A stretch of DNA of 64,000 bases from Candidatus Eiseniibacteriota bacterium. Lineage in GTDB: Bacteria > Eisenbacteria > RBG-16-71-46 > JABDJR01. The stretch spans positions 1,030,071 to 1,094,070 of the forward strand of contig CALOCN010000001.1 in assembly GCA_942491735.1 (NCBI GenBank), read 5' to 3'. The position numbers and the translations under genes were made by a program. Position 1 is the first letter of the stretch. Each line of letters starts with the position of its first letter. Shown piece after piece: positions 35,635 to 63,696 of the stretch. The notes under the pieces were generated by a model. The model ran no database searches and was not told the DNA's origin. It saw only the letters and a program-made list of their open reading frames with translations.

Positions 35635-35951
35635 ACCCGGCGCCGGTCGGCGTCGAACCACGTCATGCGTCCTCAGCACTCCTCGAAGGACGTCAGACAT
35701 CGTCCGTGGCCGGTCTCCTGACTTGCGGGTCATCCTCGGGTCGCCCCTTCCCGGAAACGTGTTCCAGTGGGATTCTTGCGACCGTTGTCACCGCTTACAG
35801 TGGCGGGTCCGTGCCGGATTCTCACCGGCTTCCCGTGCACCACGGACGAGATGTGAGTGAGGCGCAGTCTAGGGATGCGGGAGGGGGGGGTCAATGAGGA
35901 ACAGGGAATCGGTTACGGTTAGGCGGGATACAGGTTCGGGAAGGAGCAGCG

Positions 35952-39626: not shown

Positions 39627-41669
39627 CTACGGGATCAACACGAGCCGCTGGACCGATTGGAACCCTCCCGCGCGAAGCCGGTACAGGTAGACCCCCGCCG
39701 GTGCCTTGCGTCCCAGATCATCCACGCCGTTCCACCGCGCGGTATGCGAGCCCGCGCCCAGATTCGTGCGAACCAGTTCCCGCACCCGCCGCCCGGCCAG
39801 GTCGAACACCTCCAGGGTCGCCGGACCGCTCTCGGCCAGGGTGAACCCGATCGTCGTGCTGGAACGGAACGGGTTGGGTACCGCGGAGTGCAGGGTCACC
39901 GCGGGGGTGATTTCCGGGTCGGGCGCGGCGAGGGGAGTGGCCTGGTACCCGAAGTCCTGGTCGGTCAGGCTGCCCGAGCAATCGGCGGCCAGTTTCGCCT
40001 CGTCCGGGGTGAGGATCCCATCCGGGTCGTAGGTCGGGGCGGCACCGCTGGGAACGGTGGTGTTGTCCACCCGCACCGTGTAGCGCCCGGCGGCCAGACC
40101 GGAGAAGGCGTAGGCGCCGCTTCCCGTGGTCGTTGCCGTGTCCAGGACGGCAAGCGATTCATCCAGGAGTTCCACCGTGACTCCCGGGAGTCCCGGCTCC
40201 CCGCTGCGGGTCTGGTCGCCGTTCTGATCGTCCCAGACTACGCCGGCCACCGTGCCGTCCCTGCGCGTGAACTCCCAGCGATCGGTGCGGAAGGTGATGC
40301 TTGCCCCGCTGTTGCTGATGAGGGTCGCCACCACGTTGATCAGCTCCCCGTTGCCCCCGTTGGAAACGGCGAACGGATCCAGGATGTCGTTGCCACCCCA
40401 GAGGTACGAGTCGTCGTTCACGAAGTCGGCCAGGGGAATGGTGATCTTCTGCCAGCCTCCGCCGGCGACCAGGTCACCTCCCGTGGCCTTGACGGTGAGC
40501 GTCGTCTCGAACTCGTCGTCCGCGCTCGGGGAGATGTTCCCGTCCCCGTTGTCGTCCTCCTGGAGCTGGATGATCAGGTTGTAGTCCTGCCCCGCATCCG
40601 GCTCGACCCACAGGCTGAAGTGGGTCATGCCGGTGAGGTCGTGGTGATTCTCCCGGCCAAAGCCGCCGAAGTAGCCGGGGCTGCCCCCGGCTCCCCAACC
40701 CACGTCGATGGAGCCGGCGCAACCCTCTCCCGGGGCCGAGGTGGTGGTGTTCTGGCCGATTCCGCCGCCGCCGATCCCGTTGAAGGAGAACCAGCCGTCC
40801 CCGTTGGGATTCCCGTTGTCCCCACCCGCGAAGATGATCGAACACCCCTCGAACTCCGGTCGTTGGTAGACGCGAACGTAGTCCACCACCAGTTCCTGCG
40901 GGAACACCGTGGTCCCGTCGGGAGGCCCGGGCAGGTTGCCGCCCACCGCCATGTTGAGCAGGATGTGCATGTCATGGTTGAACGGCGCGGGGTACTCGCC
41001 GCCGGTGGAATACCAGGTCTGCTGGCACGCGTAGAGTTCACCATCCACGAACCAGCGAAGTTCGTTGGGGGACCACTCGAGGGCGAAGGTGTGGAAGGCA
41101 TCGTTGAAGGTGCCGCTGGGGAGAACGTAGTCGTTCCCCGAGTAGACGTTCCCGGGAAACGCGTCGCCGTAGTGGATGGTCCCGAACACCTCGTCCGGGT
41201 TCTGCCCCACGTACTCCATGATGTCGATCTCGCCGCCCGCCGCCCAGCCCCCGTAGTTGTTGTCGGTGAAGAGAAGCCAGAAGGCGGGCCAGATTCCCTG
41301 GCCGATCGGCAGCTTGGCCCGCATCTCGAATCGGCCGTAGGTGAAGCTCATCGTGTTGCGGGTGACGAGCCGGGCCGACGTGTAGTTCCTCCCGCCAATC
41401 GACTCCTGCTTGGCGGTGATGGTGAGGTGTCCACCGGCCACCGTGGCGTTCTGGCTGCGGTAGTACTGCAGTTCGTTGTTTCCCCAGCCGCACAGGCTCG
41501 GACACCCGGTTCCGAGGTCGAACCCCCATTTGGTGCCGTCGACGGAGCTTCCATTGAACTCGTCCGACCAGACCAACTCGTAGTCCTGGGAGAGGGCCAA
41601 GGCGGGGCATAGGCCCATAAGCCCGGCGCAAGCCAGGACGACGATCGCAGCGCGGTGACATGCACCCAT
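39627..41669 (-). CDS. glycoside hydrolase family 16 (beta-glucanase/laminarinase-like), multidomain, with C-terminal FlgD-Ig/T9SS-like domain
   Basis: Internal ATG 41669 with AGGAG about 10 nt upstream; signal peptide; GH16 catalytic motif GEIDIMEY (ExDxxE); Gly/Asp-rich middle; Cna-B-like segment; C-terminal VPNPFRS...WNGVDDLGRKAPAGVYLY. Confidence 0.8.
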   Translation of the reverse strand: MGACHRAAIVVLACAGLMGLCPALALSQDYELVWSDEFNGSSVDGTKWGFDLGTGCPSLCGWGNNELQYYRSQNATVAGGHLTITAKQESIGGRNYTSARLVTRNTMSFTYGRFEMRAKLPIGQGIWPAFWLLFTDNNYGGWAAGGEIDIMEYVGQNPDEVFGTIHYGDAFPGNVYSGNDYVLPSGTFNDAFHTFALEWSPNELRWFVDGELYACQQTWYSTGGEYPAPFNHDMHILLNMAVGGNLPGPPDGTTVFPQELVVDYVRVYQRPEFEGCSIIFAGGDNGNPNGDGWFSFNGIGGGGIGQNTTTSAPGEGCAGSIDVGWGAGGSPGYFGGFGRENHHDLTGMTHFSLWVEPDAGQDYNLIIQLQEDDNGDGNISPSADDEFETTLTVKATGGDLVAGGGWQKITIPLADFVNDDSYLWGGNDILDPFAVSNGGNGELINVVATLISNSGASITFRTDRWEFTRRDGTVAGVVWDDQNGDQTRSGEPGLPGVTVELLDESLAVLDTATTTGSGAYAFSGLAAGRYTVRVDNTTVPSGAAPTYDPDGILTPDEAKLAADCSGSLTDQDFGYQATPLAAPDPEITPAVTLHSAVPNPFRSSTTIGFTLAESGPATLEVFDLAGRRVRELVRTNLGAGSHTARWNGVDDLGRKAPAGVYLYRLRAGGFQSVQRLVLIP

Positions 41670-41777
41670 GAATGGGACTCCTGAGGTTGCGGTGGGCCTA
41701 CGAGCATACCACTTTGATCTCTTATCGAACAAAGTCTTTAGTCAACTGCAACCGGTTGCTGGATATGCGTTTGTGGC

Positions 41778-48701: not shown

Positions 48702-49691
48702 ATGCCAACCAACGTACCGCCGCAATGGCGTGCCCTCGAAGAGGAGTATCGCCAGGCCACCGATCACGACGAGAAGATCCGCCTCCTGGAAGAGCTGCTC
48801 CGGACCGTCCCCAAACACAAGGCGACCGACCGGCTCCAGGCGGACCTCAAGTCCAAGCTGGCCAAGCTCCGCAAGGAACCCAAGAAGAAGGCCGGGGCCG
48901 GGGCGGGTCCCAGCCACACCATCGCGCGCGAGGGGGCCGGCCAGATCGCCCTGGTGGGGCCGCCCAACGGGGGGAAGTCGTCGCTGCTTGCGGCCCTGAC
49001 CCACGCCGAGCCCAGGATCGCCGACTACCCCTTCACCACCCGCGAACCCCAGCCCGGCATGATGCGACACGAGGACGTCCCGATACAGCTGGTGGACCTC
49101 CCGCCGCTTTCGGACGAGCACGTGGAGCCGTGGGTCTACGACAACATCCGTCGCGCCGACGTGGTGTGGCTGGTCTCGGACAGCGGCCAGGCGCTGGATG
49201 GAGTGGAGCTGTGTCTGCGCCTCACCGATCCCAAGCACGTGGGTCTGGTCCCGGCCGGGCGCGAGGTGGACGGGGAAGGCAAGCCCATGGGCTGGATGCC
49301 CAAGCCCACTTTCCTGGTGGTTACCGGCATGGACAAGCCGGATGCCGCCGGGAATCTGGAGATCCTGCGGGAGTTGCTGGAGATCCCGTTTCCTGTCTTC
49401 CCCGTTTCCGCCCCCACTCTTGCAGGAACTCCCGAGCTGGCCGCCGCCACCTGGAACCAGCTCGGCAGGATCCGCATCTACACCAAGGAACCGGGCAAGG
49501 AGGTGGACCGCACCACCCCGTTCATCGTTCCCCTGGACTCCACCGTCGAGGACCTCGCACGTCACATCCACAAGGACCTTGCCGAGCGGCTCAAGTTCGC
49601 CAAGGTGTGGGGAACCGGCGTGTTCGACGGCCAGCAGGTCCACGCTGAACACACCCTGCACGACAAGGACGTCGTCGAGCTTCACGACTAG
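48702..49691 (+). CDS. DRG-family GTPase (Obg-related, with C-terminal TGS domain)
   Basis: G1 motif [11 protein letters not shown]; N-terminal coiled-coil and C-terminal IRIYTKEPG...[11 protein letters not shown] aligning by eye with DRG proteins; TAGAAT 6 nt upstream of ATG. Confidence 0.75.
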
Positions 49692-49739
49692 ATCCCCAGT
49701 CTTGCCGCCGCCTTCCCGATCCGTCAGTATCCCCCGACC

Positions 49740-50672
49740 ATGACCTCCGTCGGCACGCCTCCCATCGAAGCGATAGGCCTCGTCAAGCGCTACGGCGACC
49801 TGACCGCGGTGGCCGGTATCGACTTCGCGGTGGCGCCCGGGACCTGTCTCGGGCTGCTCGGTCCCAACGGGGCCGGCAAGACGACCACCATCGAGATCCT
49901 GGAGGGGCTGCTGGATCCGGACGCCGGCGAGGTCCGGGTCATGGGGCGCACCTGGAAGGAGGGCGGCGATGCCATCCGTCAGGGCATTGGGGTGCAGCTC
50001 CAGGAAACCAAGCTACCCGAGAAGCTCACCGTCATCGAGGTGCTCAACCTCTTTCGCAGCTTCTACCGCGAGGGGCGGGATCCGGAAGAGGTCATGGACC
50101 TGATCGGCCTCACCGAGAAACGCACCGCCCGGGTGACCACCCTTTCCGGGGGGCAGCAACAACGTCTCGCCCTCGGTTGCGCCCTGATCAACCACCCCAA
50201 ACTGCTGTTTCTCGACGAACCCACCACCGGTCTGGATCCCCAGGCCCGCCGTCGGGTGTGGGAGATCGTCGAGGAGTTCAAGGCCGAAGGAGGAACCGTC
50301 CTCCTCACCACGCACTACATGGACGAGGCCGAGCGGCTCGCCGACGACCTGGTCATCATCGACCATGGCAAGGTCATCGCCACCGGGAGCCCGGCCGAGA
50401 TCATCGCCTCCCTGGGGGTGGCCAGCATTGTTTCGTTCCAGACCCTGGAGGCGGTGCACGATATCGCCTTCGACGGCCTGCCCGGCGTGGCCTCGGCGCG
50501 TGCCGACGGGGAACGGACCGAGCTCACCGTCTCCGAACCCCATCTCGCCCTGCAGGCCCTTCTGGATGCCCTGCGCGACCGCGACCTGAGCGTGGCCGAT
50601 CTGCGGACCCATCGACCGACGCTCGAGGATGTGTTCGTTTCCCTCACCGGCAGGCACCTGCGCGATGAGTAG
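49740..50672 (+). CDS. ABC transporter ATP-binding protein (ABC-2/DrrA-like)
   Basis: Walker A GPNGAGKTT, signature LSGGQQQRL, Walker B LLFLDEPT. Confidence 0.9.
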   Translation: MTSVGTPPIEAIGLVKRYGDLTAVAGIDFAVAPGTCLGLLGPNGAGKTTTIEILEGLLDPDAGEVRVMGRTWKEGGDAIRQGIGVQLQETKLPEKLTVIEVLNLFRSFYREGRDPEEVMDLIGLTEKRTARVTTLSGGQQQRLALGCALINHPKLLFLDEPTTGLDPQARRRVWEIVEEFKAEGGTVLLTTHYMDEAERLADDLVIIDHGKVIATGSPAEIIASLGVASIVSFQTLEAVHDIAFDGLPGVASARADGERTELTVSEPHLALQALLDALRDRDLSVADLRTHRPTLEDVFVSLTGRHLRDE

Positions 50673-50696
50673 GGTGATCCCGGCGGCGTGCTCCCG

Positions 50697-51731
50697 ATGA
50701 AGCGCAACCAGCTCTACCAACTCACCCTCATGCGGCTCATCCTGTTCTGGCGCGAGCCCGAGGCGGTGTTCTGGGTCTTTCTCTTTCCGTTGATCCTTGC
50801 CCTGGTCCTGGGCTTCGCCTTCAAGAACCGCGGGGTGGAGCCGAGCCGGGTCGGTGTCATCTCGGGGGTAACCGACGATCGCTGGATCGCCGCCCTGGAC
50901 TCCTCGGCCAGTGTGGAAACCGTTCGTTTCGTGGACGGCGACGTCGCGGCGAAGAAGCTTCGCACCGGCGGGGTCGAGGTTCTGGTTCTCGACGGCGACC
51001 CGATCGTACTGCGTCTGGACCCGACCCGCCCCGAAGCGGAAACGGCGCGTCTGCGGATCCACGAGCTCATCCAACGGGACGCGGGGCAGCCGGATCTGGT
51101 TCCCACCACCACCGAACCCATCACGGAGCGCGGTTCCCGCTATATCGACTTCCTCATCCCGGGGCTGCTCGGCATGAACCTCATGGGCACCGGCATGTGG
51201 GGGACCGGGTTCGCCATCGTGGACATGCGGCAGAAGAAGCTGCTCAAGCGGTTCCTGGTCACCCCCATGCGTCGCTCCAATCTCATGCTGGGGCAGATGC
51301 TCTCCCGGCTGGCCTTCCTGGTCATGGAAGTCTCCCTCATCACCGCCTTCGGCGCCCTGGTCCTGGGCGTCCCGTTCCGGGGCGCGGTGGGGACCTACGC
51401 CCTGTTCTGCGTGCTGGGCGCCCTCGTCTTCTCCGGGTTGGGGCTCCTGACCGCGTCCCGGGTGCGGACCATCGAAGGCGCGAGCGGGCTCATGAACTTC
51501 GTCATGATGCCCATGTGGCTTCTCTCGGGGGTCTTCTTTTCCTACGAGCGTTTCCCCGAGTTCCTCCACCCGTTCATCCGGGCCCTTCCCCTCACCGCGC
51601 TCAACGACGCGTTGCGGGGTCTGATGCTGGAGGGGGACAGACTGCTCGACCGGGGACCGGAACTGGCGGTGCTGACGGTTTGGACCCTGGGTTCCTTTGC
51701 GGTGGCCCTGCGTATTTTCCGCTGGCGTTGA
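50697..51731 (+). CDS. ABC-2 family transporter permease
   Basis: Six hydrophobic segments; follows the ATPase gene; ATG 50697 (GTG 50688 alternative). Confidence 0.75.
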   Translation: MKRNQLYQLTLMRLILFWREPEAVFWVFLFPLILALVLGFAFKNRGVEPSRVGVISGVTDDRWIAALDSSASVETVRFVDGDVAAKKLRTGGVEVLVLDGDPIVLRLDPTRPEAETARLRIHELIQRDAGQPDLVPTTTEPITERGSRYIDFLIPGLLGMNLMGTGMWGTGFAIVDMRQKKLLKRFLVTPMRRSNLMLGQMLSRLAFLVMEVSLITAFGALVLGVPFRGAVGTYALFCVLGALVFSGLGLLTASRVRTIEGASGLMNFVMMPMWLLSGVFFSYERFPEFLHPFIRALPLTALNDALRGLMLEGDRLLDRGPELAVLTVWTLGSFAVALRIFRWR

Positions 51732-51802: not shown

Positions 51803-54800
51803 TCAGCGCACCCGCACCACGCGCCGCATCGCGGTCACGTCCGGGGTTTCCACCCGGACCAGATACACCCCGGCCGCCACAAGCGCCCCCTGCGTGTTAC
51901 GTCCATCCCAACGCAACTCGTGGGCTCCGCTTTTCAGCACGCCGTCCTTGAGCGATCGCACCAGTCGCCCGGACGCGTCGAACACCCGCACCCGCACCGG
52001 TCCCGCGGTCGCCATCTCGAACTGAAGTCGCGTGCCCAGTGAGAACGGGTTCGGGAACGCGGCCAGCGCCACCGGCGACACGACGGGCGTATCCGCGGCA
52101 AGGATGGGCTCGGCGGTGCGGAAGTGTCCCTGGTTGCGGCCGGCCACCCCGGGCCGGAACCAGCGCGTGGCGGGGAAGTAGGGCGACGGCGTTCGCAGCC
52201 GCCACTGCACGGAGTAGAGCGTGGATGGATTGAGCCCGGTGAGCTGGTTCAGGAGCTCCGTGGAGGAACCCAGGCTCCCCACCACCGGTCCGGTCTCGGC
52301 CCAGCCGCTGTACCAACTGATGCTGAGATCTCCCAGGTAGGGGTGGTCCGAGGTCGGATAGATCCACCACTCCTGCCGGATCCGGGTGCGCCCGGCCGGG
52401 CTCTGGGCACGCCCGGTATGGATCTGGATCTGATCCGGTAGGTCGGTCGTTCCCAGACGGGAAACCGGTTGCCCCCCACTGTTCCGGATCTGGGGCCGGT
52501 GTGGAGTCTGCCAGAACTGCGAGGTCCCTCCGCCGGGGTAGCTCCACACCCGCCCCCGCTGACTGATTCCTCCATTGAGGTAATCGACTGCGGACCCGGC
52601 CGGATCGCAGAAACCATCCCCGTTGAAGTCACCGGCCGCCACCGCCCAACCACCGTGCGCGCCCGCCTGGTTGGACCCCGACCACCACGCGCCAAACCCG
52701 CCCACCTCCATCACGCCCCACCGGCCTTCCGTGTTCTGGCCGTCGGTGTAGTAGGGCGCCCCCGCGACCAGGTCTCCCAGCCCGTCCGCGTTCACGTCCC
52801 CGGCGTCGGCCAACGCGAATCCCAGGTTGGCTCCGGTCTGGCCGCCCCACTCGGAGCGGCTGATGTTCTGGTATTCCAGCCGCACCATGCCTTCGTTGCT
52901 GAAGGTGCTGGTGGCCCACGGTGCTCCCATGGCCACGCCGTCCTCGTGGCCGTTGGGGGAGGCCACGGCGGCGAGCGCGTAGCCCAGCTGGATCCCGGTC
53001 GGGAACGGAGTCAACGACGACCCCTGCCATTCCCAGGTGGGGGTGGTCTCCGGTCCGGTGGGTCCGCCTCGGTACCCCCGCACCAGTCCCTCGTCATCCG
53101 CATTGTCGTCGAAGAGCGGGGCCGAGACGAACAGGTCGGTGTACCCGTCCCCATCCTTGTCGCAGGCCGTAACCGCGAAGCCGAACGCGCACCCGGAGTG
53201 CGGCCCGGTGACCGTCCATACCGGGGTGGCGGCCAGCCCGGTCGGCGACCCCAGGTAGCAGAACGCCGCGCCCAGGTTGCTCGACCCGTAGTCCTTCGCC
53301 CCGACGATCACATCGGCGTAGCCGTCTCCGTTGACGTCACCCGCCGAGGCCACCGCGTTCCCCACGAAATCCGAGACGCCCCCCACGGTGCTGAACCAGT
53401 TCGCCACGGCTCCCGGACCGGTGGCCGATCCGTGAAACAGGTACGCCCTCCCGGAGTTCGCACCACCTCCGTTGTCCCCGCGCGCCCCCACCAGCACGTC
53501 GTCGAACCCATCCCCGTTCACGTCTCCGGCGATGGCCACCGAGGAGCCGTGCCAGTCGTAGACCGCGTTCCCTTCATGGGTCCAGGGAGCGGGGAGGGTC
53601 GTGCTGAGCCCCAGGGACCCGCCATAGACCAGCTCCACCCGTCCCGCCTCCGTACCATGGATCCCGTCGTAGAACGGCGATCCCACCAGGAGATCCTCGT
53701 ACCCATCCCCGTTGACATCCCCCCCGCTCCCCAGGGACTGGCCGTATTGTTCGCCGGTCTGGTCCCCGAAGATGGCGAATCCGCCCGTGGTGGCCAGGCC
53801 CTCGGCCCCGCCCTTGAAGAGCCGGACCCGACCCGCGTTGATGTTGGCTCCATCGTCGTAGATGTATTCCGCTGCGAGGTATTCCGAGAACCCGTTTCCA
53901 TCGACGTCACCGGCGGTGGCCACGCAGTGACCCAGGGCCGCCCAGTCCTGGGTGCCGTTCAGGTACCAATCGAAGTTCGCGCCGATCCCCGTCGCCGATC
54001 CCGAGTAGCCCAGGATGCGCCCCGCGTTGGTGGCCCCGTACCAGGGGACGCCCACCATGAGATCGGCGTAGCCGTTCCCGTCCAGGTCGCCGGCCGGGGC
54101 GACCGAGAACCCGAACTGGTCGCCGCTCCCTCCGCTGAGGATACGGCTACCGGTGTTGGTGAGCCCCGTCGCCGTGCCGTAGCAGACGATGACCCGCCCG
54201 GCCTGGGTGGCCAGGGGGTAATCCGGAGCGCCGATGGCGGCGTCGGCATAGCCGTCCCGATTGACGTCGCCGGCCAACGAGACACAGTGACCGTAGCGTG
54301 CGTTGGCCGCGGGCCCGACCAGGGTCCAGGTGTCCAGGGCGTAGGTTCCGGTGGAGCTCCCCAGATACAATTGGACCTGGCCCGCCTCGGGCGAGGCAAG
54401 ACCGGGATTGTAGCCGGGGGATCCCACCAGCCAGTCGGAGTAGCCGTCGCCGTTGACGTCCCCGCAGGTCGACACGCTGTAGCCGAACTCGGAACCACTC
54501 GTGCCGCCTCCCACCCATCCGGTGCTGGTGGAGAGGCCGGTCGAGGAACCCAGGTGCAGATAGGCGCGACCCGGAGAGCCGAAGGTGGCTCCCCATTCCG
54601 GAGCGCCGATCAACACGTCGCAGTACCCATCCCCGTTGACGTCGCCCGCGGTGGCGACCGAGAACCCGGTCCTGGATTGGCTGCTCCCCACGCGCTCCCA
54701 ATCCGGGGTGGTGGAAAGCCCGGTCGCCGAACCCAGGTAGAGATAGGCGTACCCGCGGTTGGAGTCCGCGAACGGAGCCCCCACCAGGACGTCGTCGTAG

Positions 54801-55159
54801 CCGTCGCCGTTCACATCCCCGGCCGGGGCCACCGAGTAGCCGAACTGCGCTCCTGATCCACCGTGGGTCACGTCCCAATCCGGCGTTGCCCCGAGACCGG
54901 GGTAGGCATTGCCGTGGTAGACATACGCGCGGCCGTCCCCGTCCATGGGTGCCCCCACGATGACATCGGTGAACCCATCGCCGTTGACGTCACCGGCCGG
55001 AGCCACCGATTCGCCGAAGCGGCTCCACGCCGGGCCGGACTCGGACCAGCCGCCATAGGTGATGGCGGGGGTGGCGTCGACGACGTTCGGGGTGGTCTGC
55101 GCGGCGAGGATCAGAACGAGTAGAGCCCGGATGGCGGGCCGGCGGAAAACCGATCTCAT
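51803..55159 (-). CDS. large secreted FG-GAP/VCBS-repeat protein with C-terminal FlgD-Ig/T9SS-like domain
   Basis: 1118 aa; signal peptide; more than 12 repeats of AGDVNGDGY.D..VGAP; AGGAGG 6 nt upstream of ATG; C-terminal FPNPFS...RWDGRNTQGALVAAGVYLV. Confidence 0.8.
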   Translation of the reverse strand: MRSVFRRPAIRALLVLILAAQTTPNVVDATPAITYGGWSESGPAWSRFGESVAPAGDVNGDGFTDVIVGAPMDGDGRAYVYHGNAYPGLGATPDWDVTHGGSGAQFGYSVAPAGDVNGDGYDDVLVGAPFADSNRGYAYLYLGSATGLSTTPDWERVGSSQSRTGFSVATAGDVNGDGYCDVLIGAPEWGATFGSPGRAYLHLGSSTGLSTSTGWVGGGTSGSEFGYSVSTCGDVNGDGYSDWLVGSPGYNPGLASPEAGQVQLYLGSSTGTYALDTWTLVGPAANARYGHCVSLAGDVNRDGYADAAIGAPDYPLATQAGRVIVCYGTATGLTNTGSRILSGGSGDQFGFSVAPAGDLDGNGYADLMVGVPWYGATNAGRILGYSGSATGIGANFDWYLNGTQDWAALGHCVATAGDVDGNGFSEYLAAEYIYDDGANINAGRVRLFKGGAEGLATTGGFAIFGDQTGEQYGQSLGSGGDVNGDGYEDLLVGSPFYDGIHGTEAGRVELVYGGSLGLSTTLPAPWTHEGNAVYDWHGSSVAIAGDVNGDGFDDVLVGARGDNGGGANSGRAYLFHGSATGPGAVANWFSTVGGVSDFVGNAVASAGDVNGDGYADVIVGAKDYGSSNLGAAFCYLGSPTGLAATPVWTVTGPHSGCAFGFAVTACDKDGDGYTDLFVSAPLFDDNADDEGLVRGYRGGPTGPETTPTWEWQGSSLTPFPTGIQLGYALAAVASPNGHEDGVAMGAPWATSTFSNEGMVRLEYQNISRSEWGGQTGANLGFALADAGDVNADGLGDLVAGAPYYTDGQNTEGRWGVMEVGGFGAWWSGSNQAGAHGGWAVAAGDFNGDGFCDPAGSAVDYLNGGISQRGRVWSYPGGGTSQFWQTPHRPQIRNSGGQPVSRLGTTDLPDQIQIHTGRAQSPAGRTRIRQEWWIYPTSDHPYLGDLSISWYSGWAETGPVVGSLGSSTELLNQLTGLNPSTLYSVQWRLRTPSPYFPATRWFRPGVAGRNQGHFRTAEPILAADTPVVSPVALAAFPNPFSLGTRLQFEMATAGPVRVRVFDASGRLVRSLKDGVLKSGAHELRWDGRNTQGALVAAGVYLVRVETPDVTAMRRVVRVR

Positions 55160-55252
55160 GGAGCACCTCCTGGGAGCTATCCAGAGACGCGCATTTTCCG
55201 CGGCGACGAGGCCATCCTGACCGTGAAGCCGTCCACGAAAACCCCTGCCCCG

Positions 55253-57613
55253 CTAGGACTCCGGTCCCGCAAGTCCCCGATACCGTTCGGCTTCCGTGGG
55301 TTGATTCAGGGTTTCGTAGAGGTCGGCCAGCACGCCGGCGATCTTCCGGGTGTTGGGGTGCTCCGGTCCCGACAGGCCCACCATCGCGTCGTAGACCCCG
55401 GTAAGGATCGGCTCCGCCTCGGCCGGCCGTCCCAGATCGATCAGGGACAGAGCGAACGAGCCGCGGAAGCTCTGGGTGCGCACATCCGCGTCTCCCAGAA
55501 GGCTGTCGGCGATGGCCAGGGCCCGTTCGTGGAAGGGGATCGCTTCCGCCGGTCGATCCATGTTGTAGAGCTGCTTGGCCACCGCGTTGTATCCCATGGC
55601 GGTGCTGGAGTTGAGTTCTCCCAACACCCGGATCTTGTCCTTGAGGACCTGCTCGAACGTCTCCAGGGCCAGGGCCTGGTCCCCGTTGGCGTTGTAGAGA
55701 TAGGCCAGGTTGTTGTGCATGACCAGCACGTCGGGGTTGTCGGCGCCATAGAGAGCGATTCCCATTTCGCAGGCCGCCGCCATGAGCGGGGTGGCCTCGT
55801 CCAGCCGGTCCACCTGCCAGAGCAGGTTCCCCAGGGCGCCGGCCATGACGAAGGTGACCTCGCTCTGGTTCCCAAAGGACGCCCGTGCCCGGGCCAACGC
55901 GTCCTCGATGTGCGGGATGGCCTCCTCCAGACGTCCGTGCGCTTCCTCGAGCCCCCCCAGGAAATGCAGCGCATCGATGATCTCCACCCCGCGCGGATCC
56001 AGGCGGGGCATCACGCCCCGGATGCGTACCGCCATGGAGTCGGCCGAGTCCAGCCGCCCCGTGTCGATGAACACGTCTCCCAGGGACTCCAGGGGTGGGT
56101 AGAGCCGCGGATCCCCCGGCTCCAGGATCGCGTCGAGCCGGGCCAGGGCGTGGCGGAAGTGGTGCTCCGCGTCCTCGTACCGCCCCATGCCGCGATAGGT
56201 GTCTCCCAGGGACAGGTGGGCGCTGGCCGCGACTTCCGGCAGATCTCCCAGCTCGCGGTCGATCACCGAGGTCGCGTTGCCCAGGACATCCAGGACCCGG
56301 ACGTCCGGGCCCGACTCCCAGGGATCCGGGGATTCCAGCAGGGTGACCATGAACTCGCTCAGCACCCGGGACTTCTCGGCTTCCGTCTCGGCCCGGGCGC
56401 GTGCGTGCTCGGCGCGCGACCAGCCGGCCACCGAAACGATCAGCCCGGCCAGGAGCACGGCCACCCCGGCCGCCCCGGTGAGCACCACGCCCCGGTTGCG
56501 CTTGGCGAACTTGCGGAACTGGTACACCGTGCTGGGGGGACGGGCCAGGATGGGCTCGCTGTCCAGGAACCGTTGCAGGTCGGCGGCCAGTTCACCGGGG
56601 GATCCGTAGCGCTGTTCCTTGTCCTTCTCCAGGCACTTGCGAACAATGGTCTCGAGGTCCGAGGGAAACCGCTGTTCCCCGTCCCCCAGCGAACTCGGCT
56701 CGTCCTCCTCGATCACCCGTGCCGCCTCGATGAGGCTCTTCCCCTGCAGCGCCTGCGGCAGGCGATCGGTCAACACCTCATAGCACAACACACCGAGGGC
56801 ATAGACGTCGGACCGGGTGTCCAGTTCGTCCTGCTGCCCGCGCACCTGCTCGGGGCTCATGTAGGGGAGGGTGCCCACGACCTGTCCCGCGTCGGTGCGG
56901 AAGGTGGTGGCCCGGACATCGTCGTCGAGGTGGCGCGCCACCCCGAAGTCGAGAATCTTGGGTTGCCCGTCCGGGCGGACCAGGATGTTGGCCGGTTTCA
57001 GGTCGCGGTGGACAATGCCGTTCTGGTGCGCGTGGTTGACCCCTTCGCACACCCGGATCAGGAGCTCGATCCGGTCCTTCGTGGAGAGCTTCATCTCGCG
57101 GGCAAACTCGGTCAGGGGGAGCCCGTCGATCAACTCCATGACGAAGTAGGGTTGCTGCCCCAGGGCCGCTCCGGTGGTCCCCGCATCGTAGACCCTGGCG
57201 ATCCCCGGGTGATCCAGTTGTCCTAGAAGCTCGGCCTCCAACTCGAATCTTTGCAATGCTTTGCGTGATAGGGCATCCCCTCGAATCAGCTTGAGGGCGA
57301 CGTCCCGGGAAGGCTGTTCCTGATGGGCGCGAAAGACCACACCCATGCCCCCTCCGGCGATGATGCCCTCGAGGCGGTAGCTGCCGATGGTCTTCCCCAA
57401 CCAGGCGTCCTCGCCTCCGATCGAGGCGATGGCGGAACCGCCCAGGAACTCTCCCGCCCGGGCGCCCGCCTGGAGCAGGGAGATCACCTCGGACTCGAGC
57501 TCGGTGTCCTCGCCGCTCTGATCCCGGACGAACGCCAGCCGCTCTTCCTCCGGAAGCTCGATGGCCTGATCGAACAACTCGCTGGCCCGGGCGAAGAGGT
57601 CGCGGGACGTCAT
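55253..57613 (-). CDS. Ser/Thr protein kinase with C-terminal TPR-like region and one transmembrane segment
   Basis: Internal ATG 57613 overlapping sigma stop (ATGA); catalytic loop HRDLKPANIL, DFGVA, SPEQ; TM segment GVVLTGAAGVAVLLAGLIVSVAG. Confidence 0.85.
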   Translation of the reverse strand: MTSRDLFARASELFDQAIELPEEERLAFVRDQSGEDTELESEVISLLQAGARAGEFLGGSAIASIGGEDAWLGKTIGSYRLEGIIAGGGMGVVFRAHQEQPSRDVALKLIRGDALSRKALQRFELEAELLGQLDHPGIARVYDAGTTGAALGQQPYFVMELIDGLPLTEFAREMKLSTKDRIELLIRVCEGVNHAHQNGIVHRDLKPANILVRPDGQPKILDFGVARHLDDDVRATTFRTDAGQVVGTLPYMSPEQVRGQQDELDTRSDVYALGVLCYEVLTDRLPQALQGKSLIEAARVIEEDEPSSLGDGEQRFPSDLETIVRKCLEKDKEQRYGSPGELAADLQRFLDSEPILARPPSTVYQFRKFAKRNRGVVLTGAAGVAVLLAGLIVSVAGWSRAEHARARAETEAEKSRVLSEFMVTLLESPDPWESGPDVRVLDVLGNATSVIDRELGDLPEVAASAHLSLGDTYRGMGRYEDAEHHFRHALARLDAILEPGDPRLYPPLESLGDVFIDTGRLDSADSMAVRIRGVMPRLDPRGVEIIDALHFLGGLEEAHGRLEEAIPHIEDALARARASFGNQSEVTFVMAGALGNLLWQVDRLDEATPLMAAACEMGIALYGADNPDVLVMHNNLAYLYNANGDQALALETFEQVLKDKIRVLGELNSSTAMGYNAVAKQLYNMDRPAEAIPFHERALAIADSLLGDADVRTQSFRGSFALSLIDLGRPAEAEPILTGVYDAMVGLSGPEHPNTRKIAGVLADLYETLNQPTEAERYRGLAGPES

Positions 57614-58170
57614 GCCTCGGGGCTCTCCGCGTTGAGTTCCCGGAAGAGCCAGGCGCGAGCGAAGGCCCACCGTCGGCGGACCGTGCGCACCCCGATGTCC
57701 AGCAGCTCGGCGATCTCCGTTTCCTTGAGTCCGGCGAAGTACTTGAGTTCCACGATGCGGCAGTCCTGGGGCGAACGATCGGCTAGGCGCTCCATGGCCT
57801 GGTTGAGCTCCAGCAGGTCGAAGTCCCGGTCCCCGGTGGTGATGTCGCTGAGGGTCACCCGGACCATCCCACCGCCCCGCTTGCGGCTGTTGTGCGCCCG
57901 GGCGTGATCCACCAGCACCCGCCGAATCTGCTGGGCGGCCACGCACATGAAGTGCCCCCGGTTCTGCCACCCCACCTGCTGTTGTGCCAGTCGCAGGTAC
58001 ACCTCGTGCACCAACGCCGTGGGCTGCAGGGTGTGGCTGCCCCGTTCATGCGCCATGTGATAGGCGGCCAGGGCGCGTAGCTCCTGGTAGACGACATCCA
58101 CCACCGAGTCGGTGCCGCTCAGGCTGGGGTCGGAAGGGGGGCCGGGCTCATTCGGGGTGTGTCGGGTCAT
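57610..58170 (-). CDS. ECF-type sigma factor of the Ser/Thr-kinase-associated class
   Basis: 186 aa; sigma-4-like HTH LKETEIAELLDIGVRTVRRRWAFAR; gene order sigma then kinase with 4-bp overlap. Confidence 0.7.
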   Translation of the reverse strand: MTRHTPNEPGPPSDPSLSGTDSVVDVVYQELRALAAYHMAHERGSHTLQPTALVHEVYLRLAQQQVGWQNRGHFMCVAAQQIRRVLVDHARAHNSRKRGGGMVRVTLSDITTGDRDFDLLELNQAMERLADRSPQDCRIVELKYFAGLKETEIAELLDIGVRTVRRRWAFARAWLFRELNAESPEA

Positions 58171-58536
58171 CGGCGTCTCCTGGCTGGGATGCCCGGACGG
58201 GACGTCCGAGACTAGCAGGAAACGCGTGAATGGAGGCCGGAACCGGCCAGGGACGCTGGCCCATACGGCGAAATTCCTTGTTGAAATCGAATCTGATGTC
58301 CTCTACTTTCGAGAACTGAGCCGAGTCTATTGCGGTTCCGGTCAGAATGCGCTCCGTGGATCCGCGGCCGAAATACTTGTTCGCCGCCACCATGTGATCC
58401 CGGGCACGGGCCGGACCCCCCACTCGACGCATCGAACGTTCTATTACGGTTTCGCGTGCGACCCGGGCCTCTCGCACGCGTTGTGGGAAGTGGTTTGTGC
58501 TTCCCGACCAGTGAAAAAACATCCAGGAGGCCCTCC

Positions 58537-61500
58537 ATGCGTGTCGCCGTATTTGCGACCTTGCTGCTGCTCGTCCTCACCCCCCTCGCCTTGGCCGCCC
58601 CACAACCGGGTCATCCCGATGGCGGCGAGGCCATTCCCGTTCTCCAGGTCGACCGGGGCGGGCCGCTGGCTCCCTCCGGGCCCACCGACATCATGAACCT
58701 GGATACCGGCAACACCTACGCCACCATCGCCGCGGCCCTTGCGGACCCACTCACCCTCGACGGGCATACCCTCGAGGTCCAGGTGGCCAGCCACGGCGAA
58801 GGGAGCGTCCTCGTCGACAAGAGCGTGACCCTGCAGGGACAGACCGGAACCGAGTCCGTCCTGGCCACCAGCAACACCTCCAGCAGCGGCGACGCGCGGG
58901 GATGGTTCCTGGTCACCGCGCCCAACGTCACCGTGCGCGACCTCAACTTCGACGGGGATGGGTTCCTGATCTGGCAGGGCTTCCGGGTCAAGTCGACCGG
59001 GACCGGGATCACCTTCGACGACTGCACCTTCAACGACATCCGGTTCCAGGCCTCGGGGTCCCCGTACGCCGGCAACGCGATCGTCTCCATCGACGCGGAG
59101 ATGGCGGTGACCGACTGCGACTTCTCCCTGATCGGCCGGCACGGCATCTTCTTCTTTGGCGCCGGGGTCACCGCGGGCGTGGCCAGCGGCAACACCTATA
59201 CCGGCAAGGGTGCCGGGGACTGGCTGGACTACGGGGTCGAGATCGGTGGGGGAGCGGTGGTGACGCTCACCGACAACACCATCACCGCCTGCACCGGCGT
59301 GGCCCTCTCCGACGGATCCACGTCGGCCGGCGTCCTGGCCAGCACCTTTTTCGGGGCGGGCACGACGGCCAACGCCACCGGTAACTTTCTCAACGCCAAT
59401 ACCACCGGGTTCTTCGCGGGCTACGATGCTTCGGACGTCACCGTGACCGCGATCAGCGACAACGACCTGTCCGGCAACACGGACTTCGGCATGGTCGCCA
59501 CCTCGACCACGGTGACCGCGGACGCCTCCGCCAACTGGTGGGGCAGCAACGTGGCCGCCTCGGTCTCCGCCGCCATCTCCGGCGACGTGGACTACACCCC
59601 CTGGCTGGACGTCGGCACCGACACCGGGGGCCCCGGGTTCGAGGGGGACTTCGCCGTTCTCCATGTGGACGACGACAGCCCGCAGACCGGAGCCACCGGC
59701 CGGATCCAGGAGGGGGTCGACCTCGTCACCGCGAGCACGGTCCTCGTTGAGCCGGGTACGTATGTGGAGCAGGTCATCGTGGATGGGATGGACGTGGAAA
59801 TCGTCGGTTCCGGCGACGGGGTCACCCTCGTCCATGCCCCGGCCAGCCTGGCCACGACCTTCACGACATCCGGGCCCAACAAGCCGGTCATCTCGGCCAT
59901 GAACACCGACTCGGTGATCATCCGCGACCTGACCGTGGACGGATTGGGCGTCGGAAACGCCAACAACCGGATCATGGGAGTCGGTTTCTGGAACGCCGGC
60001 GGCGCCCTGCTGGATGCCACGGTGCAGAACGTGATCGACACCCCGTTCTCCGGGGTCCAGCACGGGATCGGTATCCTGGCCGCCAACAACACGGGAGGTC
60101 CCTACGCCCTGGAGGTGGGGAACGTCGTCATCCAGGAATACCAGAAGAACGGAACCGCCTTCACCGGCGGCGGGCTGACCGTGGACATGCACGACTGCAC
60201 CGTGATCGGCAAGGGAGCCACCACGACCATCGCCCAGAACGGAATCCAGTTCAGTGGCGGCGCCGGGGGCGCGATCACCAACTGCGACGTTTCGGACATG
60301 GACTACACCCCGGACAGCTACGTCTCCAGCGGGATCCTCTGCATCGGCGCGACCCCGGTCGACATTTCCGGGGGCTCGGTCACCGACGTGCAGGAGTCGC
60401 TGTACTACATCGACACCGACGGGGCGATCGGTGACCTGACCGTCACCGGCGGGAGTGAGCCCTACGACGCGTTCTTCATCTACAACACTTCCACCAGCGC
60501 CGCGCTGAATCCGCTCGCCGCCGGCTCCCAGAAACCGGTCGCCTCCCCGTTCACGGTGGGCGGCGGCTCCGGCGCCGGCGCCGGGTCCGCCTCGGCCCCC
60601 AGCGCGGTCATGACGGTGACCATCGACCAGAGCTGCTTCACCGATCCCATTCCCGGGCCCGCCAACACGGGGATCTTCGCCTGGACCGACGGCGGTCCCC
60701 TGGACGTGACCGTCACCAACACGCGTGTTTCCGGGTACGACGGCGGAATGCGCACGGCCGGCGGGGCGGTGCTCACCGCGACCAACAACCACATCAGCGG
60801 CAACACCACCTCCGGATACGACAACACCGGCAGCGGCAACGCCCAGGTGGCGACGCTGAACTACTGGGGAGCCAACGACGGCCCGTCAGGGGACGGCCCC
60901 GGCAGCGGCAACGCCGTGCTGAGCGTGGGCGGCGAGGTAGACTTCTCGTCGTGGCGTACGGACGGGGCCTCCACCACCGCCTGTGCCTTCAACCCGGTCT
61001 CCGGCAACTCCGTGGATCCCGTTCCGGACGTGGACTGCGTGTCCACCGCGAATCCCTGTGTCGACGTCGACTTCGAGATCACCCGGGCCGACGCCATCGA
61101 CATGCGCGGGTTCAGCCTCACCTTCCAGTTGAGTCCGGAGCTGGAGCTCTGCAACGGTCTGGCCAGCATCACCGAGGGCACGTACCTCAACGCGATCGGG
61201 GGGACCAATTTCCAGGTCCTGGACAACGGTGGGGGGTCCTACACCGTGGACGCCGCGATCCTGGGGCTGCCCTGCGGCGCCACCGCGGCCACCGGGACCC
61301 TGTTCTCCATCGAGGTCACCAACACGGGTGGGGACGGCACCGGCACCATCACCGTGACCGGTCTCATCCTGCGTGACTGCGTGAACGTGGACATTCCGGG
61401 GATCGCCGGGTCGACCACCCTGCAGATCGACAACACCGCGGTGAGCGCGATCACGGATCTGGCCGCCGCCCAGCAGCTCACCGGAAACGACGGGGACGGG

Positions 61501-62742
61501 ACCACGGTCATCGACCTGTCCTGGACCGCTCCCGCCGAACCGGATGCCTACCAGACCCAGATCTGGCGGAAGGGCTTCGGGTTCTATCCCGAGTACGACG
61601 ACCTGGGGGGATCGGCGCCGACCGCTCCCGCCAACCCGGTCGACGCCCTCTCCCAGGGGTGGACCCTGGTCGCCACCCTTCCCGCCTCCTCCTCGAGCCA
61701 GGCGGACGAGACCGCGCTCGAGCGGGACTTCATGTACTTTGTCGCATTCGTCTCGGACAGCTGCGGCAACATCAGCGGTGTGTCCAACGTTACCGACGGG
61801 ACGCTGAACTATCACCTCGGGGATGTGGTGCCGGTGACTCCGCCTCCGTTCGGGGACAACCTGGTCGACGTGCTCGACATTTCCAAGCTTGGGGCGCACT
61901 ACGGCACCAGCGACGGGGACGCTCTCTATCTGGATACCCTGGACGTCGGTCCCACCTCCACCAACTTCGTGGATGGTCTTCCCGACACCGACGACAGCAT
62001 CCAGTTCGAGGACCTGATCCTCTTCGCCATCAACTTCGGTCAGGTCTCCAAGCCGGCGCCGCCGGTGGACGGCGAGGATCTCCTTGTGGTCCGTGTACCG
62101 GAACTCCCCGCGGCGGGGGACCTGGTGGTGTCGCTCGACATGACGGCCAGCGGACGCATCCAGGGTCTGAGCATTCCCCTGGGCTGGGACCCGGCGGTGG
62201 TCAAGCCGGTGAGCCTGGTTGGCGGGGAACTCCTGGACCGGCAGACCGGGGTCGGGGTGGCCCTTGCCCCCTCGCCCGGGACCGTCGACGTGGCGGTGTT
62301 CGGCTCCGCCCTGTCGGGGACGGGGACCGTGGCCCAGGTGCGTTTCGAGGTTCTCGGGGCCGGTGACCCGGGCATCAGCCTGGGCGAGGTGACCGCCCGG
62401 GATGGCAGGAACCAACCGGTGGAGTTGGTGGGTTCGGTTGAGGGGGACCGCCGGGTCGTCCCGGTTGCCACCCGGTTCCTGGGGGCGAGCCCGAATCCCT
62501 TCCGCGCGGCCACCCGGGTGAACTTCACCCTGGCGCAGGAGACGCCGGTCGTGGCGCGCATCCATTCGGTGGACGGTCGCCTGGTTCGCACCCTGTTCGA
62601 GGGTTCCCTCGGTGCGGGTGAGCGTTCGGTGAGCTGGAACGGGCTCGACGCCAACGGTCGGCCGGCGGCCGCCGGGGTCTACGTCCTCCAGTTCCGGGCC
62701 GGGACCCTGCAGGAAAGTCGACGGATCGTCCGTCTACGCTGA
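58537..62742 (+). CDS. giant secreted protein: parallel beta-helix repeats, cohesin-like modules, dockerin-like segment, C-terminal FlgD-Ig/T9SS-like domain
   Basis: Internal ATG 58537 with AGGAGG 6 nt upstream; signal peptide MRVAVFATLLLLVLTPLALA; Gly/Thr/Asn-rich beta-helix-like repeats; dockerin-like GDNLVDVLDISKL...DTDDSIQFEDLILFAINFG; C-terminal SPNPFRA...WNGLDANGRPAAAGVYVL. Confidence 0.7.
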   Translation: MRVAVFATLLLLVLTPLALAAPQPGHPDGGEAIPVLQVDRGGPLAPSGPTDIMNLDTGNTYATIAAALADPLTLDGHTLEVQVASHGEGSVLVDKSVTLQGQTGTESVLATSNTSSSGDARGWFLVTAPNVTVRDLNFDGDGFLIWQGFRVKSTGTGITFDDCTFNDIRFQASGSPYAGNAIVSIDAEMAVTDCDFSLIGRHGIFFFGAGVTAGVASGNTYTGKGAGDWLDYGVEIGGGAVVTLTDNTITACTGVALSDGSTSAGVLASTFFGAGTTANATGNFLNANTTGFFAGYDASDVTVTAISDNDLSGNTDFGMVATSTTVTADASANWWGSNVAASVSAAISGDVDYTPWLDVGTDTGGPGFEGDFAVLHVDDDSPQTGATGRIQEGVDLVTASTVLVEPGTYVEQVIVDGMDVEIVGSGDGVTLVHAPASLATTFTTSGPNKPVISAMNTDSVIIRDLTVDGLGVGNANNRIMGVGFWNAGGALLDATVQNVIDTPFSGVQHGIGILAANNTGGPYALEVGNVVIQEYQKNGTAFTGGGLTVDMHDCTVIGKGATTTIAQNGIQFSGGAGGAITNCDVSDMDYTPDSYVSSGILCIGATPVDISGGSVTDVQESLYYIDTDGAIGDLTVTGGSEPYDAFFIYNTSTSAALNPLAAGSQKPVASPFTVGGGSGAGAGSASAPSAVMTVTIDQSCFTDPIPGPANTGIFAWTDGGPLDVTVTNTRVSGYDGGMRTAGGAVLTATNNHISGNTTSGYDNTGSGNAQVATLNYWGANDGPSGDGPGSGNAVLSVGGEVDFSSWRTDGASTTACAFNPVSGNSVDPVPDVDCVSTANPCVDVDFEITRADAIDMRGFSLTFQLSPELELCNGLASITEGTYLNAIGGTNFQVLDNGGGSYTVDAAILGLPCGATAATGTLFSIEVTNTGGDGTGTITVTGLILRDCVNVDIPGIAGSTTLQIDNTAVSAITDLAAAQQLTGNDGDGTTVIDLSWTAPAEPDAYQTQIWRKGFGFYPEYDDLGGSAPTAPANPVDALSQGWTLVATLPASSSSQADETALERDFMYFVAFVSDSCGNISGVSNVTDGTLNYHLGDVVPVTPPPFGDNLVDVLDISKLGAHYGTSDGDALYLDTLDVGPTSTNFVDGLPDTDDSIQFEDLILFAINFGQVSKPAPPVDGEDLLVVRVPELPAAGDLVVSLDMTASGRIQGLSIPLGWDPAVVKPVSLVGGELLDRQTGVGVALAPSPGTVDVAVFGSALSGTGTVAQVRFEVLGAGDPGISLGEVTARDGRNQPVELVGSVEGDRRVVPVATRFLGASPNPFRAATRVNFTLAQETPVVARIHSVDGRLVRTLFEGSLGAGERSVSWNGLDANGRPAAAGVYVLQFRAGTLQESRRIVRLR

Positions 62743-62832
62743 GTGGACTCGTCGGGGGATCCGTTCCGGCCTGCCCGGATCGGGCGGGTCCCCCGGCCGT
62801 CCACGTTTTTGGGGGGAGGTGCCTGGAGGTTC

Positions 62833-63696
62833 ATGAACGCCGCAACACGATTTCTTCGAAAGTCCAGGTTCCTGCTCTGCCTGTTGTTCTGGGGGCTCGT
62901 CTTTGTCATTGGTGTCGCTCGCGCCGAAGGCAACGGCGTTGCCCTTCTCCTGGAGGCCGAGTCGTCCTGTGCCTGCCAGTCCGGGCAGGTCGTGCAGGTG
63001 GCGCCGCTCCAGGTCTTCGATCTCGAGGTCCGCGTCCCCGCACCATCGGACAGCTTCAATGCCTACGAGGTAACCCTTGTCTTCGACCCCGCCCATCTCC
63101 TGTTTCAGCAACTCGCACCCCTTTCGCTGCAGGAAGGGGCGCTCATGACCACGGCGTGCCCCAGCCGGTTCCACGTGTTCAGCGAGACCTCCGGGACCAT
63201 CGAGTTGACCCACTCCCTCCTGTGCGCGGGGGTCCGGGTTGCCGGGGAGGGCACGGTCTATCGTCTGCGGTTCCAGGCTGCGGACCACGCCTCGATCAGC
63301 ACCGTCGAGTTCACCTCGGCCCGTGTCGTCGACGCGGGGATCCCGCTGGGACCGATCACCACCACCGGTGTGGAGGTACGGGTCGGGGACGTTTCCGCCG
63401 CCCCGTCTCCACCACCGGGACCTCTGCTTGAGGGCCCGATGCCGAATCCGACCCGGGGGGCGGCGGGATTTTCCGTGCGCTTTCCCCGTCCCACCCGGGT
63501 TGTGTTCGGTATCTACGACTCCAGGGGGCGACGTGTGTCCCTGGTCTATGAGGGCGCCGTGGACTCCGGCTCGCGAACCTTCCGCTGGAACGGACGGGAT
63601 CGGCTTGGGCGGGACGTCCCTCCCGGGGTGTACTACGCCCGCCTGGATACGCAGGACGGGACCCTGTCCCGGCGTCTGGTTCGACTCTCACGCTGA
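62833..63696 (+). CDS. secreted cohesin-like domain protein with C-terminal FlgD-Ig/T9SS-like domain
   Basis: Internal ATG 62833 with GGAGG upstream; signal peptide; C-terminal MPNPTRG...RWNGRDRLGRDVPPGVYYA. Confidence 0.6.
   Translation: MNAATRFLRKSRFLLCLLFWGLVFVIGVARAEGNGVALLLEAESSCACQSGQVVQVAPLQVFDLEVRVPAPSDSFNAYEVTLVFDPAHLLFQQLAPLSLQEGALMTTACPSRFHVFSETSGTIELTHSLLCAGVRVAGEGTVYRLRFQAADHASISTVEFTSARVVDAGIPLGPITTTGVEVRVGDVSAAPSPPPGPLLEGPMPNPTRGAAGFSVRFPRPTRVVFGIYDSRGRRVSLVYEGAVDSGSRTFRWNGRDRLGRDVPPGVYYARLDTQDGTLSRRLVRLSR

Follow-up and report, generated by a model that had tools for sequence, protein, structure and literature searches.

Ordinary sigma factors carry an acidic motif, DAED or DxxDxxQE, in region 2.2 (σ2.2) that contacts the beta-prime clamp, whereas members of the extracytoplasmic function (ECF) group ECF43 have uncharged residues and a conserved Thr in σ2.2 (consensus QTTA; STTA in EcfP and QATE in EcfK), and a neighbouring Hanks kinase phosphorylates that Thr, restoring the charge (PMC13147305, PMC8999054, PMC8103513). 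The hallmark of the group is an adjoining Hanks kinase gene with no anti-sigma gene (PMC13147305). Here we analyse a 64-kb stretch of DNA (the window; GC content, ~68%) from an uncultured, Eisenbacteria-like bacterium, in which genes for an ECF sigma factor, a Hanks-type Ser/Thr receptor kinase, and a giant FG-GAP repeat protein follow one another head to tail on the minus strand. We consider it likely that the three form an ECF43-type module, in which the kinase activates the sigma factor and the sigma factor drives its own operon and the FG-GAP gene. To our knowledge, control of a sigma factor by phosphorylation has been shown experimentally in only two or three proteobacterial cases, and we know of no description of a kinase-sigma pair dedicated to FG-GAP cargo of the type IX secretion system (T9SS).

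The closest known systems are EcfK/PknS and EcfP/PknT. The pair EcfK/PknS comes from a gammaproteobacterium, Xanthomonas citri, and the window from a high-GC, uncultured lineage; the two kinases share one layout, consisting of a pre-kinase helical segment, a Hanks domain, one transmembrane (TM) helix, and periplasmic tetratricopeptide repeats (TPRs). In both systems the sigma and kinase genes are adjacent with no anti-sigma gene, and both sigma factors have Thr51 in a σ2.2 without the full acidic motif and also share Thr106/Ser108 of the linker. One acidic residue is retained in EcfK (QATE) but none in the QPTA of the window sigma factor. EcfK controls a type VI secretion system that defends its host against amoebae, while the gene linked to the window pair encodes a predicted T9SS-type FG-GAP protein. 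T106 in the σ2-σ4 linker of EcfK is, with S108, a second functional site, and the TM helix of PknS is followed by its periplasmic TPRs (PMC13147305).

For EcfP/PknT of Vibrio parahaemolyticus, also of ECF43, the work of Iyer et al. (2020), as summarised later, describes a sigma factor that is intrinsically inactive without DAED (STTA, compared with QPTA here), a phospho-acceptor Thr at the third motif position, as predicted for the window sigma factor, and a kinase encoded next to its sigma factor, as in the window (PMC8999054). In that system, the output consists of polymyxin resistance genes rather than an FG-GAP protein, the extracytoplasmic domain of PknT differs from that of the window kinase, and the evidence is experimental, whereas the window module is known from sequence alone (PMC8999054). 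Classical autoregulated pairs of ECF sigma and anti-sigma factors, such as RpoE-RseA and SigW-RsiW, combine a two-domain sigma factor with a bipartite promoter at its own operon and at neighbouring targets, as is predicted for the window. They work by release from sequestration, whereas the window sigma factor lacks both an anti-sigma factor and the acidic core-binding motif and is predicted to be activated by phosphorylation. As for the third gene product, T9SS cargo of the FG-GAP or integrin-alpha-like type shares with it the signal peptide, the DxNxDGxxD loops, and the type A sorting domain; the conserved region of the window protein at residues ~880 to 1030 has no family assignment.

The window sigma factor is of the two-domain type (σ2 plus σ4). 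It matches Pfam PF07638 Sigma70_ECF (E = 1.4e-48, residues 20 to 180) and, over nearly its full length, NCBIfam TIGR02999 (188.5 bits; cutoff, 126), models that we take to correspond to ECF43. In a database search with a threshold of E ≤ 1e-10, ~8000 relatives were returned, and those with a name belong to Candidatus Eisenbacteria, Krumholzibacteria, Phycisphaerae, and Terriglobia. Its σ2.2 motif, Q49-P50-T51-A52 (QPTA), replaces DAED, with both acidic positions gone. T51 is invariant in 35 aligned homologues, in which the surrounding stretch, H46-T-L-Q-P-T51-A-L-V-H-E56 (HTLQPTALVHE), is nearly invariant, and T106 and S108 are present in the σ2-σ4 linker. By its place in the motif, Thr51 would be the equivalent of EcfK T51 and of the second Thr in EcfP STTA. 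As the predicted acceptor is Thr and not Ser, ECF43 is favoured over the kinase-linked sister groups ECF59-62, ECF217, and ECF283. Each ECF43 feature that the sequence allows to be assessed is present. No anti-sigma gene lies beside the sigma gene at the locus, the neighbours encoding the kinase and a beta-helix protein. The original prediction for this DNA, which was made from the letters of the window, had proposed a kinase-regulated ECF sigma factor. That proposal is upheld by the two family matches, the non-acidic σ2.2 with its invariant T51, the lack of an adjoining anti-sigma gene, and the PknS-type kinase, and these features do not point to a group that has a conventional anti-sigma partner.

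Homologous contig stretches that were fetched for comparison are labelled L001, L003, and so on, L001 being the same DNA as the window. The sigma factors of L171 (P0011) and L009 (P0012) read HSLRPTDLVHE, in which the conserved Thr is followed directly by a retained Asp (RPTD), similar to QATE of EcfK. In L095 the motif is DTTD, with both Asp and both Thr residues kept.

The kinase has a well-supported Pkinase domain (E = 8.2e-46), in which the glycine-rich loop is AGGGMG rather than GxGxxG, and a predicted N-in, C-out topology. Its best match among all solved structures, 9EED (E = 1.3e-53), is PknS(1-364), the EcfK-phosphorylating kinase of X. citri (PMC13147305). The alignment begins at residue 7 (residue 9 of 9EED) and includes the pre-kinase segment. 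The kinases of sigma-linked loci can be aligned end to end at 48 to 63% identity. As originally described, the TGA of the sigma gene and the ATG of the kinase gene share 4 bp (ATGA). The same 4-bp overlap is found in L005, L011, and L171, and its recurrence across lineages supports sigma-kinase coupling. An upstream GTG at 57970, which gives the longest open reading frame (ORF), was rejected as the kinase start in favour of the ATG at 57613, because independent calls give 786 aa (L001) and 787 aa (the L005 homologue) and because the N terminus of the 786-aa form aligns with all relatives.

The FG-GAP protein, found as described before at 1,118 aa and 93 bp downstream of the kinase gene on the same strand, has 11 Pfam FG-GAP stretches (9e-87) and 13 DxNxDGxxD calcium-type loops at a spacing of ~60 residues. 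Its N terminus is hydrophobic and signal peptide-like, and its C terminus matches FlgD_ig and the T9SS type A sorting domain, with Pfam Por_Secre_tail staying below its cutoff (17.6 versus 27). Together, the signal peptide and sorting tail suggest a T9SS-exported surface protein. The region between repeats and tail includes RTRxRQEWW, WRLxTxSPYFPxTRWFRP, and GHFRT. A single-sequence AlphaFold2 model of the protein, made with no alignment, has a mean pLDDT of 30.3, too poor to show a seven-bladed propeller.

The FG-GAP gene is a conserved neighbour of this sigma factor. At sigma identities of 62 to 75%, an FG-GAP giant with a FlgD_ig tail adjoins the sigma gene in six of seven lineages, and the contig of the seventh (L175) is too short. 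Where complete, these giants have 1,114 to 1,137 aa, and they can be aligned end to end at 37 to 50% identity to the window protein. The adjacency is conserved through three gene orders. L005 (sigma identity, 70%) has the window order of sigma, kinase, and FG-GAP; in L009 (62%) and L171 (65%) the FG-GAP gene is divergent from sigma-kinase; and in L003, L004, and L091 (74%) two divergent FG-GAP genes are followed by the sigma gene and then a convergent kinase gene. L174 (72%) has an FG-GAP gene, the sigma gene, and then a convergent downstream gene, present as a 127-aa fragment in which no similarity to kinases and no Pfam family were detected. At sigma identities of 59 to 61%, the sigma gene has no adjacent FG-GAP giant in any of five lineages (L007, L010, L011, L172, and L173); in L010 there is no more than a 541-aa FG-GAP_3 protein, encoded three genes from it. 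In the opposite direction, of 79 loci from other genomes that encode a similar FG-GAP protein, a single one has such a sigma gene within 10 kb. Since the window holds one FG-GAP gene but six ORFs with a FlgD_ig tail, adjacency to an FG-GAP giant is informative, whereas adjacency to just any T9SS-tailed gene is not.

In L175 (75%), a new gene with a signal peptide-like start stands behind the promoter-like motif described below, and no Pfam family was found in the neighbours of the sigma gene. A short FG-GAP-like remnant (GDYNGDG; positions 2050 to 2100, minus strand) separates the sigma gene of this contig from the motif site that comes next, which suggests that the lineage holds a decayed FG-GAP gene.

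A second link between the genes is a shared promoter-like motif, [T/C]GGCC[T/C/G]-N17-CGCGT, which was first seen by eye in upstream regions placed side by side. Every FG-GAP gene with an available upstream region has it, six in all (window, L005, two in L003, L009, and L171), and it precedes the sigma gene in five of the seven lineages at ≥62% identity (window, L003, L009, L171, and L175). The sites lie 27 to 137 nt upstream of start codons, are always correctly oriented, and stand back to back in the divergent arrangements (L009 and L171); no other similarity is shared among the intergenic regions compared. As the motif had been spotted by eye, it was cross-validated with a 46-nt weight matrix built from eight sites in L003, L005, L009, and L171 only, with which both window strands were scanned. 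Exactly two matches exceed 12 bits, one before the sigma gene and one in the kinase/FG-GAP gap, and the third best scores 6.8. The strict pattern TGGCC-N18-CGCGT finds the same two sites, where 0.56 are expected anywhere in the window. Once the window sites had been added to the matrix, a scan of 2.1 Mb of unrelated loci gave six stray matches of 12.2 to 14.2 bits. Other Eisenbacteria FG-GAP loci have no match above 12 bits, and L172 (sigma identity, 60%) has a strong site before a divergent kinase gene. ECF promoters are typically bipartite, like this site with its constant 17-nt spacer and its downstream element containing CGT, and we infer that this sigma factor reads TGGCCy-N17-CGCGT.

Some variation around the sites was noted. 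Just downstream of CGCGT, the sigma upstream regions of other lineages have a conserved TGCTAnnCT element (window, TGCTAGTCT). In L009 (9380 to 9470, plus strand), two tandem copies of GCGCGTCTTCCGTCGAC[G/C]GCCGGCCCCGGCGGCG lie 5' of the sigma gene, the CGCGT element being duplicated. L003 (7659 to 7686, minus strand) and L091 (4458 to 4485, plus strand) have an extra TGGCCC-N17-CGCGT in the space that separates the sigma gene from the second FG-GAP gene, pointing away from the former and antisense to the FG-GAP gene end. This extra site may be a relic of a divergent FG-GAP/sigma arrangement of the L009/L171 type or an antisense promoter. In L005, the closest relative with full synteny, the sigma upstream region (9739 to 10000) has TGGCCA-N17-TATACT; here the −35-like hexamer is kept and seems to be followed by a −10 element of the housekeeping type.

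By analogy with the characterised members of the family, the module probably works as follows. The kinase would have its N-terminal segment and Hanks domain in the cytoplasm and, beyond a single TM helix, its TPR sensor in the periplasm, and would be activated when the sensor perceives an envelope signal. It would then phosphorylate the otherwise inactive sigma factor on Thr51 in σ2.2, with a second phosphorylation possible at Thr106/Ser108 in the linker. Phospho-Thr51 would supply the negative charge that DAED gives ordinary sigma factors and so permit binding of core RNA polymerase. The resulting holoenzyme is predicted to read the TGGCCy-N17-CGCGT promoter before the sigma-kinase genes, giving positive feedback, and the one before the FG-GAP gene, whose product would pass through Sec and type IX secretion to the cell surface.

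Several points weigh against this scheme or narrow it. The sigma factor is called ECF43-like on the basis of the family models, the σ2.2 motif, and the kinase neighbour rather than of ECF Hub group models, and the equivalence of Thr51 and Thr106 to sites in EcfK and EcfP rests on motif position and numbering instead of a direct alignment with these proteins. When solved structures were searched with the single sigma sequence, region 4 only was aligned; in a profile search, region 2 aligned to SigL one residue off the published register (HMMER). On the short contig of L175, no kinase gene follows the sigma gene. The sigma-linked FG-GAP proteins (37 to 50% identity to the window protein) are no closer than some unlinked giants (38 to 40%), and as FG-GAP giants are a large family with unlinked copies this close, strict orthology of the linked ones is not established. 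The motif is missing upstream of the sigma gene in L005 (best score, −4.6), and L174 has no site above 12 bits, so that sigma autoregulation is not universal; that it is common and not obligatory fits a sigma factor controlled after translation. Finally, the motif could be read by a factor other than this sigma factor.

This last point leads to the strongest alternative, which we regard as unlikely, namely, that the sigma-kinase pair is real and the FG-GAP gene a mere neighbour, the shared motif being read by another sigma factor or regulator that co-controls the genes. The combination in L005 of a motif-bearing FG-GAP gene with a sigma gene lacking the motif is in its favour, as are the dense occurrence of FlgD_ig-tailed genes and the wide distribution of FG-GAP giants with no such sigma factor nearby. 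However, FG-GAP adjacency survives three different rearrangements in four to six lineages, and the site has the typical form of an ECF promoter. The motif is also confined to loci of this sigma clade: apart from the L172 kinase gene, distant-sigma loci, like the other Eisenbacteria FG-GAP loci, have no match above 12 bits.

A second alternative, which we hold to be less probable still, places the FG-GAP protein in the sensing pathway, instead of or besides the output, with the TPR domain monitoring this protein or its T9SS export and so closing a feedback loop. Sensor, sigma factor, and FG-GAP protein are tightly co-located across lineages, TPRs are protein-binding modules, and the identities of kinase and FG-GAP protein to those of the window co-vary (62%/50% in L005, 62%/38% in L009, and 48.5%/37% in L003). 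Against this, relatives whose kinases are very similar (45 to 46% identity) and have the same arrangement of TPRs manage with no FG-GAP gene beside them. That the sigma factor is a conventional one whose anti-sigma factor is encoded elsewhere, the kinase acting on other substrates, is very improbable: such an anti-sigma gene could lie outside the 64 kb, but both acidic σ2.2 positions are lost, translation of the kinase gene is coupled to that of the sigma gene, the N-terminal segment associated with sigma genes is present in the kinase, and phosphorylation control has been shown by experiment in the same sigma family (PMC13147305, PMC8999054).

The N-terminal segment offers a further link between kinase and sigma factor. 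In PknS, the pre-kinase segment has 81 to 83 residues, is disordered in the crystal, and is predicted to be helical, its role being unexplained (PMC13147305). Residues 1 to 62 of six kinases were used to build a hidden Markov model (HMM), which was run against every ORF of all fetched loci. Among 121 Hanks kinases with an intact 5' end, a TIGR02999-type sigma gene lies within 400 bp of 27 of the 28 that have the segment, compared with 2 of the 93 that lack it; these counts overstate independence because some loci are redundant copies of one organism, but the contrast is still clear. The 28th kinase has its TIGR02999-type sigma gene at 426 bp. The segment is conserved in 24 distinct kinases, with a consensus of roughly W.R...LF..A.ELP..ER.AFL...C.GD..L..EVESLL. 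No Pfam family was found for it, and a homologue search with a 75-aa N-terminal kinase fragment returned nothing (6 candidates shared words with the query). L095 has a standalone ORF of ~120 aa (6105 to 6467, minus strand), directly downstream of a sigma gene, that carries the segment alone. This copy, taken with the sigma association, suggests an independent sigma-binding module.

We propose tentatively, and would not be surprised to be wrong, that the segment docks the sigma factor onto the kinase and that this clade is the first in which an ECF43-type pair serves, through a defined promoter (TGGCCy-N17-CGCGT), a single adhesin-like FG-GAP protein exported by the T9SS. If docking is true, such kinases would recognise and hold their substrate much like an anti-sigma domain, and the L095 protein would be a free-standing sigma-binding protein. 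The segment can in any case serve as a sequence marker for finding sigma-coupled kinases, and its association with sigma genes suggests a function for the region that the PknS structural study left unexplained.

The advance over the described systems is modest. The signalling type is known, and the window module leaves the picture of the ECF43-type family unchanged, adding a predicted promoter, a conserved target, and a statistical link between the segment and sigma adjacency. The same design is now seen in an uncultured high-GC lineage that stands closest, among named taxa, to Candidatus Eisenbacteria and Krumholzibacteria. Its regulon is concrete enough to be tested, and a connection of Ser/Thr kinase signalling to type IX secretion cargo is predicted. 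One promoter motif and one conserved target make the module a simple reporter for identifying the stimulus of the TPR domain. The features of the module and of its surroundings are collected in Table 1.

Table 1. Positions in the window of the three-gene module, its promoter-like sites, and other ORFs with FlgD_ig tails
Feature	Position	Strand	Basis or remark
ECF sigma factor, 186 aa	57610-58170	-	Begins at first start codon after a stop
Thr51 codon (ACG), predicted phospho-acceptor in σ2.2	58018-58020	-	Alignment and literature
Promoter-like site of sigma gene, TGGCCG-N17-CGCGT	58222-58249	-	Matrix 17.2 bits (46-nt match 58210-58255); ends 51 nt before ATG
Hanks-type Ser/Thr receptor kinase, 786 aa	55253-57613	-	ATG at 57613
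N-terminal pre-kinase segment, residues 1-62	57428-57613	-	Aligned to PknS N terminus
Kinase catalytic domain, residues 80-337	56603-57376	-	VALK105, HRDLKPAN202, DFG222, and SPE253 intact
Single TM helix, residues ~375-397 (hydrophobic window 374-401)	56423-56491	-	Hydropathy; follows basic residues
Extracytoplasmic TPR sensor region, residues ~460-780	55274-56236	-	TPR_12, TPR_10
Promoter-like site in kinase/FG-GAP gap, TGGCCT-N17-CGCGT	55187-55214	-	Matrix 15.9 bits (46-nt match 55175-55220); ends 27 nt before FG-GAP ATG
FG-GAP repeat protein, 1118 aa	51803-55159	-	Start 93 bp past kinase stop
Conserved region without family assignment, FG-GAP protein residues ~880-1030	52090-52520	-	Between repeats and T9SS tail
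FlgD_ig/T9SS type A sorting domain of FG-GAP protein, residues ~1035-1118	51803-52057	-	TIGR04183 31.6 bits (cutoff 23); FlgD_ig E 1.4e-12 to 1.7e-11
Divergent beta-helix giant, 1401 aa, Beta_helix + FlgD_ig	58537-62742	+	Pfam
317-aa FlgD_ig-tailed protein	62743-63696	+	Starts at base right after beta-helix stop (62742/62743)
Other FlgD_ig-tailed ORF	28340-29446	+	
Other FlgD_ig-tailed ORF	30514-32529	-	
Other FlgD_ig-tailed ORF	39630-41741	-	GH16 glycoside hydrolase with SdrD_B (39627-41732)
FG-GAP ORF, extent as scanned for FlgD_ig	51806-55252	-	
Beta-helix ORF, extent as scanned for FlgD_ig	58297-62739	+	
317-aa ORF, extent as scanned for FlgD_ig	62743-63693	+	

The original prediction had named both surface giants as candidate targets of the pair, the second being the divergent neighbour across a 366-bp intergenic region, described as a beta-helix/cohesin protein. 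For the FG-GAP gene this holds, given its conserved adjacency and the shared motif. The beta-helix giant, in contrast, is not supported as a target and only its position links it to the pair. When both giants were searched for an upstream promoter motif, as had been suggested, the FG-GAP gene gave one of the two window sites, whereas in the 366 bp upstream of the beta-helix giant the best score on its strand was −4.3 bits (versus 17.2 and 15.9). Nor does a homologue of it stand beside the sigma gene at the orthologous loci of the other lineages. At the equivalent position, L005 has an oligopeptide ABC transporter, and the divergent neighbour in L175 was rejected as a homologue because it has no significant similarity (E = 0.26). 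Of the proposed domains, Beta_helix was confirmed, whereas a cohesin domain was not found even with the threshold relaxed to E ≤ 5. The beta-helix giant and the 317-aa FlgD_ig protein behind it are probably co-transcribed. Six ORFs in 64 kb end in a FlgD_ig/T9SS-type C-terminal tail, a density that is typical of Eisenbacteria-like genomes and makes the adjacency of such genes to anything weak evidence.

Within the module, a scan of 51.5 to 58.7 kb gave no terminator-like site in the 93-bp kinase/FG-GAP gap and no sigma-70 promoter-like sites, an Rfam search of the whole window had no match there, and a repeat search of the 366-bp sigma/beta-helix intergenic region gave nothing relevant. The flanking genes on both sides have no relation to signalling; on the FG-GAP side (48702 to 51731) they comprise a GTPase gene in convergent orientation and a pair of ABC-2 transporter genes. 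Elsewhere in the window and unrelated to the module, a cobalamin riboswitch (Rfam RF00174, 117 bits) lies at 35691 to 35859 on the minus strand, 5' of the minus-strand gene at 34018 to 35529.

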